A stretch of 64,000 bases of DNA from Candidatus Dormiibacterota bacterium. Lineage in GTDB: Bacteria > Chloroflexota > Dormibacteria > Aeolococcales > Aeolococcaceae. The translations under genes and the position numbers were made by a program. Where the stretch lies: the NCBI GenBank assembly GCA_963709585.1, contig CAVPXI010000015.1, positions 1-64,000 on the forward strand, given 5' to 3'. Below the pieces are notes generated by a model that was given only the letters and a program-made list of their open reading frames with translations, did not search any database and was not told where the DNA came from. Positions 9,276-14,841 of this stretch are shown here, one piece after another (position 1 is the first letter of the stretch; each line of letters starts with the position of its first letter).

Positions 9276-9421
9276 GACCGCGACTATAGATTCGCAACCG
9301 GCGGTCGGTGGCAGGCGATGGATGCTGCCTGCTCGGGCGGTCTCGTGAACCGCGCCGGGCTCTATGGGCGCCTGACCCTTGGGCCGCCCGGCCGTGCCGT
9401 GGCCGTACCCTGTCGGACGAC

Positions 9422-10672
9422 GTGCCGAGTTCCATCGCCGAGACCTTGGCGGTCCTGCTCCTCGTTGCGACGCTGGGCTGCGCCATCGTCCGGCCCCACG
9501 GATTGCCGGAGGCAGTTGTCGCGGTCCCGGCCGCCGGTCTGCTGCTCGTGCTCGGCGTGCTCCCACTGGGTCAGGCCGGCACCGAGGCGGGAGATCTGGG
9601 TCCGACCATCGGTTTCCTCGCCGCAGTGCTCGTCCTCGCCAACCTCTGTGATCGCTACGGGCTGTTCAAGGCGGCAGGCTGGTGGATGGCAGCCGGGTCG
9701 CGGGGCAGACCGGTCTCACTCCTCGCTCTTGTCTTCGCCGCAGCGAGCGTTGTCACCGCGGTGCTCAGCCTCGACGCGACGGTCGTCCTGCTGACGCCCG
9801 TGGTGTTCGCAACGGTTGCGCGGCTGCGCCTCCGAGCCAAACCGCACGTCTATGCGTGCACGCACCTCGCCAACTCCGCGTCGCTCCTGCTTCCGGTGTC
9901 GAACCTCACCAACCTGCTCGCCTTCGGCGCGAGCGGCCTTTCGTTCGCGCGCTTCGGCGCGATCATGGCCCTCCCCTGGCTGGCGGCAATCGGGGTCGAA
10001 TGGCTCGTGCTGCGACGCTTCTTCGCGGGCGACCTCGTCGGCCGCGGCGAGTCGCACGCCGTGGCCGCGCTGCCGGTGCCGGTGTTCGCGACAACAGTGG
10101 TGGCATTTACTCTGATCAGCTTCTTCGTCACGTCGGCCTTCAATGTCAGCCCCGCATTCGCGGCACTCGGTGGCGCGCTCGTCCTCGCCGTGCCGGCGGT
10201 TGGGCGCGGCCTGACCACCGTCCGCGATATCGCGTTGTCGATCGACGTTCCCTTCCTGGCCTTTGTGCTGGCACTTGGCCTCGTGGTCAAGGCGATCTCG
10301 CTGCACGGGCTCGGCTCGGTGGTGACCCATCTGGTGCCGGGTGGCACCGGGCTCGGCTCGCTGCTGGTCATCGCGGTCGTCGCAGCCGTTCTCGCCAACG
10401 TCATCAACAACCTGCCGGCGGCGCTGCTCCTGCTTCCCGCGGTGGCCGGGGCGGGAGCCGGACCGGTCCTGGCGGTCCTCATCGGCGTCAACACCGGACC
10501 CAACCTCACGTATGTCGGATCGCTCGCCACGCTGCTCTGGCGGCGCGTCCTTGTCCGCCACGGCCAGGAGTTGCCGATCGCCGAATTCCTCCGGCTTGGG
10601 GCCCTCACTGTGCCGCCGGTGCTGATCACGGCCACCGTCGCCCTGTGGATTTCGTTGCGGTTGGTGGGTTAA
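9422..10672 (+). CDS. ArsB/NhaD-family (IT superfamily) transporter
   Basis: LSLDATVVLLTP, ANSASLLLPVSNLTNL, NNLPA, GPNLTYVGSLATLLW; ~12 TM. Confidence 0.88.
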   Translation: MPSSIAETLAVLLLVATLGCAIVRPHGLPEAVVAVPAAGLLLVLGVLPLGQAGTEAGDLGPTIGFLAAVLVLANLCDRYGLFKAAGWWMAAGSRGRPVSLLALVFAAASVVTAVLSLDATVVLLTPVVFATVARLRLRAKPHVYACTHLANSASLLLPVSNLTNLLAFGASGLSFARFGAIMALPWLAAIGVEWLVLRRFFAGDLVGRGESHAVAALPVPVFATTVVAFTLISFFVTSAFNVSPAFAALGGALVLAVPAVGRGLTTVRDIALSIDVPFLAFVLALGLVVKAISLHGLGSVVTHLVPGGTGLGSLLVIAVVAAVLANVINNLPAALLLLPAVAGAGAGPVLAVLIGVNTGPNLTYVGSLATLLWRRVLVRHGQELPIAEFLRLGALTVPPVLITATVALWISLRLVG

Positions 10673-11214
10673 TGACTTCCGTGCGAATCGTCGTCTGGGT
10701 TGTCGAGGGAACCTGGGAGGGCTGCGTCGACGCTGCCGCACAGCACTTTCCCTCCGATTCGCGATTCGTGCTCCTGCACGTCACACCCTCGGACGTCACC
10801 GAAGCCGCTGACGCAGCGACCGTCGGCCTCTTCGGGCGCGGCTTCCCCGGGCGCAGACCCGCCCGCAGCTACGACACCGTCGCCGACGACGAGGCGTCGC
10901 AGCTGCTTGCCGCCGCCGCTGTTCGTCTCGGTCATACCGATGTCGAGCTGCTCAGCCGTCGTGGGCGCGTCGAGCGTGAGGTCGTGCGCGCGGTCGCCGA
11001 AGGAGTCGATGTCCTCGTGGTGGCGCGGGACGGCGATCACTCACGTCTCGGGCCGAAGAGCCTGGGACACGCCACGCGATTCATCGTCGACCATGCGCCT
11101 TGCGCGGTGCTCCTGGTCTGGCCGGACGAGACGCCCGGCATCGACTCGATACCCCCTCCGAAGCACGGGCCACCGCCACCCCACGGCCCGCGTCCACCCC
11201 ACCGGCGCGACTAG
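10672..11214 (+). CDS. Universal stress protein (UspA domain)
   Basis: ATG overlaps upstream stop; SLGHATRFIVDHAPCAVLLV. Confidence 0.85.
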   Translation: MTSVRIVVWVVEGTWEGCVDAAAQHFPSDSRFVLLHVTPSDVTEAADAATVGLFGRGFPGRRPARSYDTVADDEASQLLAAAAVRLGHTDVELLSRRGRVEREVVRAVAEGVDVLVVARDGDHSRLGPKSLGHATRFIVDHAPCAVLLVWPDETPGIDSIPPPKHGPPPPHGPRPPHRRD

Positions 11215-12605
11215 CGCCGCGCGTCCATGACAGCGCGAACCCACGCCTGAGCACCGATCTGCATGGCGTCCCAGGGGCTACCGAGGGGCGGTGTGTAGGA
11301 CATATCGAGCTCGCTGAACGCCTCGACGGTCATGTCGTTGAAGATCGCCGCCGCGGCGATGTCGATGCGTTTCGCCACCTCCGCGTGACGGTGGCCGAAG
11401 AGCTGCACGCCGAGGAGGCGGCCGGTCTGCCGATCGCCTGTCCAGCGCATCGCGATCCGGTGCGAGCCGGGGTAGTACGCCTTGTGGTCGTCGGCTTCCG
11501 CGGCGACCGTGACCGGGTCGAACCCGGCGCTCGACGCCTCATGGTCGCGTAGCCCGGTGCGCGCGGCGGCCATGTCGAAGACCTTGACCACCTGCGTTCC
11601 AAGACTTCCGGCAAATTCGCGACGACCACCGACCGCGTTCTCGCCGGCGACGCGTCCCTGCTTATGAGCGGTCGTTCCCAGCGGGATGTACGTAGTGCCG
11701 AGCAGGCGATGGTGAGTCACCACGCAGTCGCCTGCCGCGAAAACGTCGGGCAGGTTGGTACGCATCGCCCGGTCGACGTCGATCGCCCCTCGCAGGCCGA
11801 GTCTGGCGCCGGCAGCGGCGGCCAGGCGGACGTCCGGACGGACACCCGCGAAGATGAGGACGACGTCAGCGTCCCGCCGGAAGACCACTCCGTCGCCCGA
11901 CGCGCCTTCCACGCACAGTGCCGGCCTCCGAGGCGGTTGGTTGCGCTCGACGCGATGCACGGCGGTCCCGGTCACAACATCGACGCCGTGAGTCCGTAGC
12001 TCTGCTGCGATGTGGTGTCCCAGCTCGGGATCGACCGTCGGCAGCACCTGGGGAAGCTGCTCGACCTGGGTCACCTCGAGGCCGCGAAGCGTCAGGGCGT
12101 CAGCCATCTCGAGCCCGAGGTATCCGGCGCCGATGATCACCGCGGTGTGGGCGTCCGCGGCGGTGAGACTGTCCATGACCGCAAAGGTGTCGCCCATTGA
12201 ATGGACCACGTGAACGCCGTCTCGGGGCCCCAGACGCTCGAGACCGTCGATCGGCGGGCGCACCGGGACCGCGCCGGTGCCGATCACCAGCGCGTCGTAT
12301 TCGAGAGCGCTGGTGGCACCGTTCGCGTCGCGCACGTGCACCTGGTGTGCGTCGACGTCGATCCGTTCCGCGGTCGTGCCCAGTTCGAGGCGCATGCCTG
12401 TCGCTTCGAGGTCGGCCGCGGTGCGGTGCGCCAGGTTGCGCCAATCCGGTACCTCACCGGACACGTAGTACGGGATGCCGCAGATCGAGAAGTTCGGGTA
12501 TTGGTCGGCGACAAGGACGCACACGTCGGCACCGGCGTCGAGCTCTCTGGCTCGCAGGGCTGCGGAGATCCCCGCATCGCTGCCGCCGACGGCCACGATG
12601 CGCAT
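11211..12605 (-). CDS. FAD-dependent oxidoreductase, CoA-disulfide reductase/NADH peroxidase family
   Basis: GGSDAG, NFSICGIPY (redox Cys), GAGYLG, AAGDC, SYTPPLG. Confidence 0.9.
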   Translation of the reverse strand: MRIVAVGGSDAGISAALRARELDAGADVCVLVADQYPNFSICGIPYYVSGEVPDWRNLAHRTAADLEATGMRLELGTTAERIDVDAHQVHVRDANGATSALEYDALVIGTGAVPVRPPIDGLERLGPRDGVHVVHSMGDTFAVMDSLTAADAHTAVIIGAGYLGLEMADALTLRGLEVTQVEQLPQVLPTVDPELGHHIAAELRTHGVDVVTGTAVHRVERNQPPRRPALCVEGASGDGVVFRRDADVVLIFAGVRPDVRLAAAAGARLGLRGAIDVDRAMRTNLPDVFAAGDCVVTHHRLLGTTYIPLGTTAHKQGRVAGENAVGGRREFAGSLGTQVVKVFDMAAARTGLRDHEASSAGFDPVTVAAEADDHKAYYPGSHRIAMRWTGDRQTGRLLGVQLFGHRHAEVAKRIDIAAAAIFNDMTVEAFSELDMSYTPPLGSPWDAMQIGAQAWVRAVMDARR

Positions 12606-12611
12606 CGCGGC

Positions 12612-13022
12612 TTAGGCTGCGCCGCAGCAGCCGTCCGCGTCGGGCGCCTGATCGCTCAACGGGGCATCGGCCAGCACCGTGTACACCTCCCAGCGGGTAT
12701 CCGCTCCGGCGACCCAGACCTTGTCCTGCAGAGCATGGCAGCAGGTGACCCCGTCCTCGACCTCGGTTGGCAGTCCCTCGGCGGCAAGGCGACGAGTTGC
12801 GGTCACCACCTCGTCGGTCGTGCTCACCTCGACGCCGAGGTGGTTGAGCGTCCCGGCCTGTGCCGGGTTCTCGAACAGGACCAGCTTCAGCGGCGGGTCG
12901 GCAACCGCGAAGTTGGCGTAGCCAGGGCGCCGCTTGGCGGGCTCGGTCTGAAAGAGCTTCGAATAGAACCCGATCGCTTCATCGAGATCGGTGACATTCA
13001 GTGCGAGTTGCACCCGTCCCAT
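12612..13022 (-). CDS. arsI: ArsI/CadI-family VOC metalloenzyme (C-As lyase-like)
   Basis: RVQLALNV, RPGYANF, LNHLGVEV, TCCHALQDKVW, WEVY; C-terminal CC. Confidence 0.88.
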   Translation of the reverse strand: MGRVQLALNVTDLDEAIGFYSKLFQTEPAKRRPGYANFAVADPPLKLVLFENPAQAGTLNHLGVEVSTTDEVVTATRRLAAEGLPTEVEDGVTCCHALQDKVWVAGADTRWEVYTVLADAPLSDQAPDADGCCGAA

Positions 13023-13023
13023 C

Positions 13024-13080
13024 TCAGCAGCAACCACAGTCGCACGTGCCGTCACAGTCGCAGCCGCAATCACAGTCCAT
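13024..13080 (-). CDS. 18-aa Cys-rich peptide MDCDCGCDCDGTCDCGCC (metallothionein/phytochelatin-like)
   Basis: AGGAGG RBS 10 nt before ATG; 8 Cys; TGA one base before the arsI ATG. Confidence 0.75.
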   Translation of the reverse strand: MDCDCGCDCDGTCDCGCC

Positions 13081-13096
13081 GGTGACCAGACCTCCT

Positions 13097-13155
13097 ATCG
13101 ATGACCGTCGATGAATGGTCCCGATCCTAGCGCGTTCCATCGAAGGCTGTCAATG
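13097..13155. promoter_or_regulatory. Two ArsR-type operator boxes in the divergent promoter
   Basis: ATCGA-n6-TCGAT (13097-13112) and ATCGA-n6-TCAAT (13139-13154). Confidence 0.65.
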
Positions 13156-13169
13156 GGTAGACTAAGACG

Positions 13170-13679
13170 ATGCACACTGGATCCAGGACGGTCGCGACCG
13201 ACATCGAGGTTCGACCCTTTCGCGACGAGGACTGGCCGGCGGTTCGCACCATCTACGCCGAGGGGATCGCAACCGGCAATGCCACGTTCGAGACCGAGGT
13301 GCCGGCCTTCGACCGCTGGGCCGCCGCGCATCCGCCCCAATACCGCTTCGTGGCCATCCTCGGCGGCGACATCGTCGGCTGGGTGGCCGCCGCTCCCGTC
13401 TCGGATCGCTGTGCGTATGCGGGTGTCCTGGAGCACAGCGTCTACGTGGACGCCCGCACTCGGGGTCAGGGGATCGGCCGCAGGCTGCTCGAAGCCCTCA
13501 TTGAGGGTGCCGACAGCAGTGGCGTCTGGACGATCCAGAGCGGGATCTTCCCCGAGAATCAGGCCAGCGTGAAGCTCCATCAGCGCTGCGGGTTTCGCGT
13601 CGTCGGTACCCGCGAGCGGCTTGGGCAGCTTCACGGCACCTGGCGAGACGTTCTCTTGATGGAGCGGCGCAAGCCATGA
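13170..13679 (+). CDS. GNAT acetyltransferase, phosphinothricin/ArsN1-like
   Basis: IYAEGIATGNATFE, RCAYAGVLEHSVYV, IFPENQAS, WRDVLLMERR. Confidence 0.88.
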   Translation: MHTGSRTVATDIEVRPFRDEDWPAVRTIYAEGIATGNATFETEVPAFDRWAAAHPPQYRFVAILGGDIVGWVAAAPVSDRCAYAGVLEHSVYVDARTRGQGIGRRLLEALIEGADSSGVWTIQSGIFPENQASVKLHQRCGFRVVGTRERLGQLHGTWRDVLLMERRKP

Positions 13680-14100: not shown

Positions 14101-14841
14101 GTGGTCTCCCAGCAATCCAGCACGCTGACGGTCGACGGGCTCGTCAATCTCCGTGACCTCGGCGGGCTGCCAACGGAATCTGGGGCGACCACGCTGCCGG
14201 GCCGGCTGCTGCGCAGCGAATCGCCGCACACCCTCAGTGACTCGGGGCTGCGAGCGCTCCTCGATCTTGGTATCGGCGCGGTTGTCGACCTGCGTACGGC
14301 GTCGGAACGGGAGCACCGGCCGAGCCCGCTCGTCGACGCCGGCGTGCACACGTTGCACGCGCCCATCTTCACCGACGACGAGGACTATCCCGACCACCTC
14401 ACCACCGCCGCCGAGGTCTATTGCTGGTGGCTCCGCGAGCGCCGGACCGGCGTCGCCGCAGCGATGACTGCGATCGCCGACGCTCCATCGGCGCCGATCC
14501 TGGTGCACTGTCACGCCGGCAAGGATCGGACCGGGGTGATCATCGCGCTGGTGCTGCGCCTCGCCGGGGTCAGCGTCGACGCCATCGCCGACGACTACGC
14601 GATCAGCGGCGTGCAACTTGCCGAGATGCTTGCCCGCGACCGTATCAGCGCGCGGGAACGCGGGATGGACGAGGTGCGCGCCGAGCGGATCTTCACGGTG
14701 CGCCGCGAGGCGATGGTGCACACCATGGACTGCGTCAACTCGGAGCACGGCGGTGCCGTGTCGCTGCTGCGCGCCGCAGGCCTTGACGACGTGCGAGTCG
14801 AGCGGCTGTCGAACCTTCTGCTCAGCTCGGTCTGGCCGTAG
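14101..14841 (+). CDS. Protein-tyrosine phosphatase family protein (IphP/PtpB-like)
   Basis: NLRDLGG, DLR, HCHAGKDRTG P-loop, DY. Confidence 0.9.
   Translation: MVSQQSSTLTVDGLVNLRDLGGLPTESGATTLPGRLLRSESPHTLSDSGLRALLDLGIGAVVDLRTASEREHRPSPLVDAGVHTLHAPIFTDDEDYPDHLTTAAEVYCWWLRERRTGVAAAMTAIADAPSAPILVHCHAGKDRTGVIIALVLRLAGVSVDAIADDYAISGVQLAEMLARDRISARERGMDEVRAERIFTVRREAMVHTMDCVNSEHGGAVSLLRAAGLDDVRVERLSNLLLSSVWP

Follow-up and report, generated by a model that had tools for sequence, protein, structure and literature searches.

A conserved cysteine-rich micro-gene in the leader of dormibacterial arsI operons, a candidate minimal metallothionein-like peptide

A candidate thiol peptide ahead of arsI

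We describe here a short open reading frame (sORF) that stands immediately ahead of the arsI/cadI gene in a stretch of 64,000 nucleotides (nt) from a Candidatus Dormiibacterota genome (assembly GCA_963709585.1, contig CAVPXI010000015.1, positions 1 to 64,000; this whole stretch is called the window below). On balance, we regard its product as probably a minimal metallothionein-like thiol peptide for the binding of As(III), organoarsenical(III) or Cd(II). An earlier note on this DNA had offered two readings of the sORF, a ribosomally made (Asp-Cys)n mimic of phytochelatins that sequesters As(III)/Cd or a Cys/metalloid-sensing leader peptide. A sequestering peptide, whose metal binding is presumed, appears to be the best supported of them because composition is constrained at the level of the peptide, no RNA structure was found and the sORF survives without arsI.

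In the mechanism that we propose, the sORF would head a transcript under the control of an ArsR/SmtB-type repressor encoded in the divergent direction; this repressor presumably occupies two palindromic boxes, one over the -35 hexamer and the other just before the Shine-Dalgarno (SD) sequence (Table 1). Induction of the operon would then deliver a 15-27-residue CxC peptide as a thiol ligand for As(III), organoarsenical(III) or Cd(II). Ribosomes ending at the sORF stop would reinitiate 0-2 nt downstream on an arsI that is devoid of an SD, and the peptide and the ArsI/CadI enzyme would thus come from the same initiation events.

The sORF is conserved and selected in its own frame

The sORF encodes MDCDCGCDCDGTCDCGCC (18 amino acids, aa, with 8 Cys and 5 Asp). 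Its start codon (ATG, 13080-13078, minus strand) is separated from an AGGAGG by a 10-nt spacer (13090-13081), and its stop codon (TGA, 13026-13024) is followed by a single G (13023) and then by the ATG of arsI (13022-13020). Both the ribosome-binding arrangement and the stop one base before arsI had been described in the earlier note, and both were confirmed, the AGGAGG beginning at 13096, one base off the 13095 given there. A frame of this kind is rare in the 3.52-Mb genome to which the window belongs. Among the sORFs of 10-30 aa that 8804 combinations of SD and start codon yield, only four distinct ones have at least 5 Cys, and that of the window is the only one of the four without an Arg/Trp-rich, off-frame make-up. 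Another poly-Cys frame of the same genome (G000:C16:38160) was discarded as an off-frame reading over the end of another gene, with neither start codon nor SD.

In order to follow the sORF in other genomes, we have scanned the 400 nt upstream of arsI in 80 loci that encode ArsI relatives, looking for open reading frames (ORFs) in which Cys numbers 4 or more and makes up 20% or more of the residues. The 17 best-matching loci are 75-89% identical and carry the titles Dormibacterota (15), Acidiferrales (1) and Saccharimonadales (1). Sixteen of them have a Cys-rich ORF whose end lies 1-2 nt ahead of the arsI start, and the exception (L013) has a 17-codon ORF at the same place with just 2 Cys. None of the 63 more distant arsI/cadI loci, nearly all titled Actinomycetota, has a Cys-rich sORF within the 400 nt scanned. 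Metagenomes were searched with the operator+SD motif as the only query, the presence of an sORF not being a condition. This search returned 40 loci, 38 of them with a Cys-rich sORF; of the remaining two, one is degenerate and the other is cut by the end of the locus.

Within the class the distribution is broader than one genus. The exact operator+SD motif occurs in 29 of 374 genomes, all of the window's genus (28 of the 41 other genomes and the window's own), and 28 of 30 species-level loci of this genus (taken from 34 motif matches) have a Cys-rich sORF. The arsI gene itself was found in 67 of the 374 genomes and in 14 of 75 genera, tallies that count two unpublished genomes, G173 and G404, from which no loci were taken. 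Outside the window's genus a Cys-rich sORF precedes arsI in 17 of 35 loci; in the sORF-negative ones arsI mostly stands directly behind an SD, and in three of the 35 the sORF is degenerate, fused in frame to arsI or present as a remnant only. Overall, the sORF ranges over 8 genera and 4 families of the class. A quick ArsI tree (112 rows, three duplicate rows dropped) has a weak backbone, with 54 of 109 inner branches open. Parsimony explains the presence of the sORF with five changes, and the well-supported branches force at least two; given the weak backbone, a single gain with losses, several gains and transfer are not separable on this tree. A six-frame search of 401 genomes of the phylum with a 19-position profile of the peptide gave only three matches with E <= 0.01 (the window's own match has E = 0.008), and since the model is too small to be sensitive this scarcity is no evidence of absence.

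Taken together, conservation across dozens of loci is enough, to judge from these comparisons, to rule out a chance origin of the sORF. The pattern of variation tells more about the frame in which it is read. The 57 loci collected comprise 49 different DNA versions, which encode 46 different peptides; of these peptides, 45 have at least 5 Cys. Lengths vary from 15 to 27 aa and the frame is kept in every variant. The third codon position is the most variable, with a mean column entropy of 0.84 versus 0.39 and 0.40 at the first and second positions. Across 132 pairs that share a gap pattern, the pooled ratio of nonsynonymous to synonymous polymorphism (pN/pS) comes to 0.25 for the sORF frame, against 3.2 for the +1 (arsI) frame and 0.81 for the +2 frame, figures that are descriptive as the pairs are not independent. 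The check proposed in the earlier note, which was to look upstream of arsI/cadI homologues for conserved Cys-rich sORFs that vary synonymously, has thus come out in favour of the sORF. By its pattern of substitution it is a real, conserved and unannotated gene of uncultured soil bacteria, selected in its own frame, and we infer that it is translated.

The same figures bear on the possibility that there is no separate gene here at all, the stretch being an N-terminal extension of ArsI that starts at an upstream GTG, or being joined to ArsI by programmed frameshifting or readthrough. Such an extension, rich in Ala, Thr and Val and running across the sORF in the arsI frame, is annotated in 40 of the 120 best ArsI homologues, and the ORF listing of the window contains a 153-aa version that starts at GTG. 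Over this very stretch, however, pN/pS is 3.2 in the arsI frame and 0.25 in that of the sORF, the SD is spaced for the ATG of the sORF and not for the GTG, and the distance between stop and start may be 0, 1 or 2 nt, so that the relative frame is not constant. An extension of ArsI is therefore extremely improbable. A programmed +1 frameshift or readthrough into arsI was rejected on the variation of the gap, which speaks against a fixed frameshift site.

Composition and pattern of the peptides

If the peptide itself is under selection, the residues that it uses should be informative. After the initial Met, the 45 peptides with at least 5 Cys contain 811 residues, of which 335 (41%) are Cys, 193 (24%) Asp, 124 (15%) Gly and 43 Thr. 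The rest are Asn, Glu and Pro (23 each), Ser (17), Ala (15), Arg (5), Met (4) and Ile (2), together with a single Val, Leu, Trp and Tyr; Lys, His, Phe and Gln are absent. The genome has a GC content of 66.6%, and GC-rich genomes tend towards codons for Ala, Arg, Leu, Val and Pro. Since the residues used differ from those that such a genome favours, the compositional bias is best read as selection on the peptide and not on the RNA.

Each peptide has 5-10 Cys in CxC register, with Asp, Gly, Asn, Glu or Pro as spacers. The conserved pattern begins with M-x-C-[DEN]-C and continues with further CxC units around a central [DG]-G-[TSA] turn. The window's peptide ends in CC, a doublet that is missing from many variants; otherwise Cys codons alternate with others. 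Asp prevails as a spacer in the window's genus, and elsewhere Pro and Gly take its place, e.g., in MPCDCPCGTCPCGCGC (L157) and MTCDCPDCPDCTTCGC (L214). The phytochelatin-like (Asp-Cys)n formula of the earlier note therefore describes mainly one genus and is too narrow for the others. Because the spacers change from genus to genus, it is the CxC motif that emerges from the alignment as the conserved feature, which is nearer to metallothioneins than to phytochelatins.

Coupling of the sORF to arsI

The distance from the sORF stop to the arsI start is 0-2 nt in 42 of the 48 distinct sORF loci. The commonest form is TGA, one nt and ATG (30 loci), followed by TGA, one nt and GTG (5), TAG or TAA directly joined to ATG (4) and a 2-nt gap (3). 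An SD core precedes arsI in just 3 of these 42 loci, versus 61 of 62 actinobacterial arsI/cadI loci that have no sORF. The two marks of stop-start coupling, a close stop and start and a downstream cistron without SD core, are found together in 39 of the 42. The remark in the earlier note that arsI has no obvious ribosome binding site (RBS), consistent with translational coupling, thus holds well beyond the window. With its own SD lost, arsI is probably translated by ribosomes that reinitiate after terminating on the sORF. A palindromic box related to that of the window also lies just before the SD of actinobacterial arsI/cadI, and in the simplest reading the ancestral module would have been operator-SD-arsI, the sORF now filling the space between the SD and the ATG.

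Some information on transcripts comes from Logan contigs of relatives, assembled from four runs of soil RNA libraries, which give no starts, ends or expression levels. RNA contigs with 88-94% identity (X9 records 27 and 28) span the sORF and arsI and are compatible with their co-transcription. The promoter stretch 13118-13176 is almost uncovered in all four runs, with at most 0.98 in any bin, and a contig of 151 nt has its end at 13117, where transcription is predicted to start, each of these being a weak hint at most.

Tight coupling raises the question of whether the sORF does anything other than load ribosomes onto arsI, or act as an arrest peptide, with As(III)/Cd binding to the nascent chain inside the exit tunnel and so modulating termination and reinitiation. 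The reliance of an SD-less arsI on the position of the sORF stop would fit such a role, as would the degenerate copy with 2 Cys that still has its start, frame and stop beside arsI. A mere loader, on the other hand, would maintain neither 41% Cys nor an almost complete exclusion of hydrophobic and basic residues across 45 variants, the actinobacterial arsI is served by an SD alone, and the monocistronic copies described below have nothing to load. No metal-sensing arrest peptide is known to us as a precedent, and we consider both forms of this explanation very unlikely.

No sign of a structured leader

The other reading offered by the earlier note concerned the RNA. As a Cys- or thiol-sensing leader, the sORF would slow ribosomes at its Cys codons when charged tRNA-Cys falls, possibly because As(III) or Cd depletes thiols, and so alter the expression of arsI and the genes downstream, the peptide being functionless. 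Cys-rich sORFs that are first in their operon do so in mycobacteria, in the account given by Canestrari et al. (bioRxiv 10.1101/834739). The sORF described here is also the first in its transcript and tightly joined to arsI, and a thiol-disulfide oxidoreductase gene lies downstream in some loci. The mycobacterial mechanism, as outlined in that account, works through a stalled ribosome that opens an RNA duplex hiding the RBS of the next gene. In the dormibacterial loci there is no room for such an element, with a spacer of 0-2 nt, and no SD of arsI to be hidden.

Along these lines, we have folded the first 137 nt of the predicted transcript, which begins at about 13117 and takes in the leader, the sORF and 40 nt of arsI. 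This RNA proved to be no better folded than its dinucleotide shuffles (-44.6 kcal/mol, with a mean of -46.05 kcal/mol for the shuffles and z = +0.39; of 200 shuffles, 127 were equally or more stable). The consensus fold of 16 loci has an energy of -4.16 kcal/mol with a covariation term of 0.03, i.e., no conserved RNA structure. Its single stem within the leader and the sORF is the invariant operator palindrome, and the remaining 7 predicted pairs, which link the 3' end of the sORF with the arsI start, show little variation.

Several other features are difficult to reconcile with a sensing leader. Under coupling by reinitiation, stalling would cut the output of ArsI during the stress, which is the wrong direction. 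The Cys codons alternate instead of being consecutive, and the non-Cys residues are tightly restricted, a limit that a mere sensor does not need. The genes downstream are for resistance and not for cysteine metabolism, sensing is already supplied by a dedicated ArsR repressor, and in two genomes (G493 and G498) there is nothing downstream to regulate. A leader of this kind is thus disfavoured, and we consider it rather unlikely.

The sORF persists without arsI

A way to separate a role of the peptide from that of ArsI is to look at loci where the two no longer stand together. An intact sORF with 8-9 Cys lies about 60 nt ahead of an arsenate reductase of the low-molecular-weight protein tyrosine phosphatase (LMW-PTP) type in L100, and in four further loci (L105, L109, L115 and L125) an equally intact sORF with 8-9 Cys is followed by a GNAT-like gene (weak Pfam matches, E = 0.04-0.14). 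In L116 and L150 the intact sORF is followed by a 5' remnant of arsI and then by the reductase. Finally, in G493 and G498 the next gene is convergent and the sORF (MTCDCGCDCDGTGDCDCDCC and MSCDCGCDCDDTCDCEGGDCC, respectively) is the only ORF of the ArsR-controlled transcript. In an alignment, conservation reaches as far as the stop codon of the sORF and divergence sets in immediately beyond it; G493 retains a remnant of the first arsI codons. G463 presents the reverse situation as well, with one locus in which the arsI-coupled ORF has been stripped of its Cys while keeping start, frame and position of the stop, and a second locus with an intact sORF. The loci without arsI and those of G463 indicate that the peptide has a value of its own, apart from arsI, and that the coupling role can outlast the Cys pattern.

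Two observations on these loci may be recorded here. The protein of about 200 aa that replaces arsI behind the sORF (L105:711-1220, L115 and L125:1754-2368) is conserved and has no NCBIfam match; this GNAT-like protein may be an uncharacterised member of ars-type operons. In L125 (G463), at about 1595-1700 of the operator strand, a degenerate Cys/Asp/Arg-rich ORF-like stretch lies behind the intact sORF and before the GNAT-like gene, and looks like a decayed duplicate of the sORF.

These loci also bear on whether the peptide could be an accessory specific to ArsI/CadI, a thiol arm that passes the trivalent substrate on to the enzyme or accepts its As(III) product, or that guards the Cys pairs or the Fe(II) site of the enzyme. 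In most loci the peptide and ArsI would come from one initiation event, which suits a partner of this kind. Flexible thiols do seem to matter for the family, since a core vicinal Cys pair (CC) is present in 114 of 115 ArsI sequences, the window's among them, and two CC pairs stand in the tail. In two metagenome-assembled genomes (MAGs) the sORF even runs in frame into arsI (L184 of G415 and L146 of G489). Nevertheless, the intact sORF persists with other genes downstream or with none, a Cys-rich N-terminal extension is found in 0 of the 120 best ArsI homologues of the protein collection, and we found no complementarity between the sORF and the C-terminal Cys tail of ArsI, the tails being alike with and without the sORF. 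The two in-frame fusions were set aside as probable indel errors, the MAGs concerned being 52% and 61% complete. In that of G489, arsI also seems to be fused to the next gene, in an open frame of 613 aa, long enough to include the downstream reductase-like gene. We consider a role restricted to ArsI unlikely.

As to the tails themselves, they usually have two vicinal Cys pairs (GCCG ... VCCA), with 4 Cys in the last 15 residues in 62 of 120 homologues. The ArsI of the window stops after the first of these pairs (tail at 12612-12650, minus strand) and has 136 aa, versus 145-165 aa in most relatives.

Promoter, operators and neighbouring genes

The features of the region are collected in Table 1. 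The promoter ahead of the sORF is the sole sigma-70-like one in 12500-13300 (1 found versus 0.0 in shuffles). Transcription would start near 13117, leaving a 5' untranslated region of about 37 nt. The two boxes that the earlier note had seen ahead of the sORF were borne out as two related, imperfect 20-nt operator-like palindromes, and the ArsR control that it had proposed finds its counterpart in the divergent ArsR/SmtB gene, whose product presumably binds both boxes. A tblastn search found ArsR in 75 of the 80 loci, mostly divergent and upstream of arsI. A terminator-like hairpin with a T-rich tail inside arsI (12969-12986, minus strand; 1 versus 0.2 in shuffles) is probably due to chance.

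Table 1. Features of the sORF region in the window and the evidence for each.
Feature	Position	Strand	Evidence
ArsB-like permease, farther on	9308-10672		family searches
CoA-disulfide-reductase-like pyridine-nucleotide-disulfide oxidoreductase (flavoprotein), 464 aa, after the arsI stop	11211..12605	minus	TIGR03385, 312.9 bits, below the cut-off of 578.8
arsI/cadI, 136 aa	12612..13022	minus	NF041414 ArsI_CadI_VOC, 181.3 bits, cut-off 116
sORF, 18 codons + TGA, peptide MDCDCGCDCDGTCDCGCC	13024..13080	minus	translation, locus scans, codon-level analysis
SD of the sORF, AGGAGG	13091..13096	minus	sequence; SD core upstream of the sORF start in 41/42 distinct loci
Operator-like box 2, ATCGA-N6-TCGAT core, between -10 and SD	13094..13113	minus	core invariant in 16/16 aligned loci
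Predicted sigma-70-type promoter, TTGACA (13153-13148), 18 nt, TAGGAT (13129-13124)	13124..13153	minus	10/12 matches; both hexamers conserved
Operator-like box 1, imperfect palindrome over the -35 hexamer	13138..13157	minus	70% complementary to box 2; conserved across loci
GNAT acetyltransferase, ArsN1-like, divergent	13170..13679	plus	NF040503, 143.9 bits, below the cut-off of 170
ArsR/SmtB-family repressor, 120 aa	13676..14038	plus	NF033788, 87.7 bits, cut-off 55
Y_phosphatase3-family protein behind arsR, possibly in the divergent operon	14101..14841	plus	PF13350, 187.9 bits

The oxidoreductase behind arsI was also found by tblastn in 7 of the 17 closest loci. On the other side, the divergent acetyltransferase resembles the model of the arsinothricin-resistance ArsN1 family A and its gene overlaps the start of arsR by 4 nt, an overlap that suggests a GNAT-arsR-phosphatase operon. 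The ArsN1-like and ArsB-like neighbours, together with the arsenate reductase (ArsC) of L100, point to arsenic. There are also indications of cadmium. The repressor has CC at its N terminus and CVC in the DNA-binding region, which we take to resemble the Cd/Pb site of the CadC type, and mycobacterial CadI is cadmium-induced.

Relation to known thiol peptides and small Cys-rich genes

In size (15-27 aa), Cys content (41%, in CxC) and scarcity of aromatic and hydrophobic residues, the sORF peptides have the compositional features by which a metallothionein is operationally recognised. The best known bacterial example, SmtA, has about 56 aa and a Zn4 cluster with His ligands, and is encoded by a stand-alone gene. 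Neurospora Cu-metallothionein, one of the smallest fungal ones, has about 25 aa. Fungal proteins of this size and single metallothionein domains share with the sORF peptides their size, the CxC register and spacers of the Gly/Asp/Ser/Thr type, and the register of Cys in the beta domain of rat MT-2 (30 residues) is similar; they are, however, eukaryotic and not coupled in operons. The likeness to this beta domain is one of composition and is probably convergent.

In its layout, the locus is closer to those of the SmtB-SmtA/BmtA type, with which it shares a small Cys-rich gene, a divergent ArsR/SmtB repressor, inverted-repeat operators (two boxes in the promoter region here, binding itself being predicted) and a presumed sequestration of thiophilic metals. 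It differs from them in the shorter peptide (15-27 aa), without His and without detectable homology, and in the stop-start coupling to an enzyme gene. A small Cys-rich gene with the gene of an ArsR/SmtB repressor in divergent orientation beside it is, as far as the published descriptions go into it, the arrangement of smtB-smtA (PMC8790569, PMC4353254). The nearest precedent for the discovery itself is Zrd of Pseudomonas aeruginosa, presented as a small, Cys-rich and unannotated ORF under the Cd/Zn sensor CadR (PMC12301328). Like the sORF, it is a metallothionein-like small gene found via the operator of a metal sensor; as described in that report, it has two zinc-ribbon Cys4 sites, is under the control of a MerR-type activator and lacks any coupling to the gene of an enzyme.

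The polycysteine sORFs of mycobacteria are likewise unannotated Cys-rich first cistrons of a high-GC, Gram-positive-type lineage. They are characterised in the preprint as leaderless, with consecutive Cys codons, and as part of cysteine-metabolism operons (bioRxiv 10.1101/834739). The dormibacterial sORFs are led by an SD (41 of 42), have alternating Cys, no spacer and no structure, and precede resistance genes under ArsR; neither the leaderless start with consecutive Cys nor the pairing that hides an RBS, the marks of the attenuators outlined there, is seen in them.

Phytochelatins, (gamma-Glu-Cys)n-Gly made by phytochelatin synthase, and synthetic (Glu-Cys)n-Gly peptides such as EC20 resemble the peptides of the window's genus in the alternation of an acidic residue with Cys. 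Phytochelatins are enzyme-made and gamma-linked; the sORF peptide would be gene-encoded and alpha-linked, with a start codon, an SD, codon-level selection and Asp in place of Glu, and in other genera Pro and Gly replace the acidic spacers altogether. EC20 is an engineered construct and not a natural gene. We found no Glu-Cys ligase of the E. coli type in the window's own genome, which is 88.8% complete. Phytochelatin synthase (PF05023) was also unmatched there, but the search did not match any control genome either. The same genome has an MshC-like ORF (G000:C6:314912-316033, minus strand) that scores 389.9 bits, below the cut-off of 485.1, and also a second CysS-like gene. Production of mycothiol in this lineage would bear on why a thiol peptide is encoded.

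Annotation sheds little light on the sORF. When about 5.8 billion protein clusters were searched with a profile of the peptide, two 'hypothetical proteins' came up, one of them an upstream-extended call of a member. Gene callers are expected to skip ORFs as short as this one, and the two matches therefore reflect a lack of annotation and not rarity. In addition, the public ArsI calls in the 40 homologues mentioned above overrun the sORF in the arsI frame, as does the 153-aa GTG ORF of the window over 13022-13073 (minus strand), and such upstream-started calls hide the sORF from annotation. In the literature searched, where coverage of subscription journals is poor, we came across no report in which a Cys-rich sORF is described ahead of arsI/cadI.

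A number of observations weigh against a metal-binding peptide, or at least limit how far this interpretation can be taken. Pfam gave no match at E <= 1 for variants of 20 and 25 aa, and NCBIfam likewise none. The best and only match in PDB, the rat MT-2 beta domain (2mrt_A), was obtained with the 25-aa variant and is not significant (E = 3.1, 11.7 bits). Certain variants have 4-6 Cys only. The pN/pS contrast, large as it still is, comes from the dependent pairs noted above. The loci that have lost arsI could be recent deletions, as the remnant in G493 recalls. The peptide is dispensable for the ArsI enzyme, since arsI/cadI works without the sORF in all of the 63 loci from actinobacteria and, among the other dormibacterial genera, in about half. 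Finally, the effector of the repressor, and with it the ligand of the peptide, may be arsenic, cadmium or another thiophile.

With these points weighed, a sequestering thiol peptide is still the explanation that we favour. A stronger version of it, which we put forward tentatively and at slightly less than even chances, is that the sORF encodes the smallest ribosomally made metallothionein, induced through ArsR, binding As(III)/Cd(II) alone and selected even when monocistronic. To our knowledge no smaller ribosomally made metallothionein has been described. As a part of this version, and no less tentatively, the peptides of one genus might be a naturally occurring (Asp-Cys)n equivalent of the 'synthetic phytochelatins' obtained by engineering.

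Known metal(loid)-binding thiol peptides are either metallothioneins of about 25 residues or more or enzyme-made phytochelatins. A gene-encoded CxC peptide of 15-27 residues in ars/cad operons would, if confirmed, lower the size limit of this class and provide a natural template for minimal As/Cd-binding tags, and arsenic-resistance operons would gain a component that is invisible to present annotation. What sets this gene apart is its extreme smallness, its insertion into a 5' leader and its apparent takeover of the translation of arsI. The insertion of an sORF between an SD and a start codon would be a case of the birth of a new micro-gene inside a 5' leader, capturing the translation of an enzyme. 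As the operator-SD-arsI module is known both with and without the sORF, the two states may be compared directly, both for the gain of the micro-gene and for the shift of translational control onto it.

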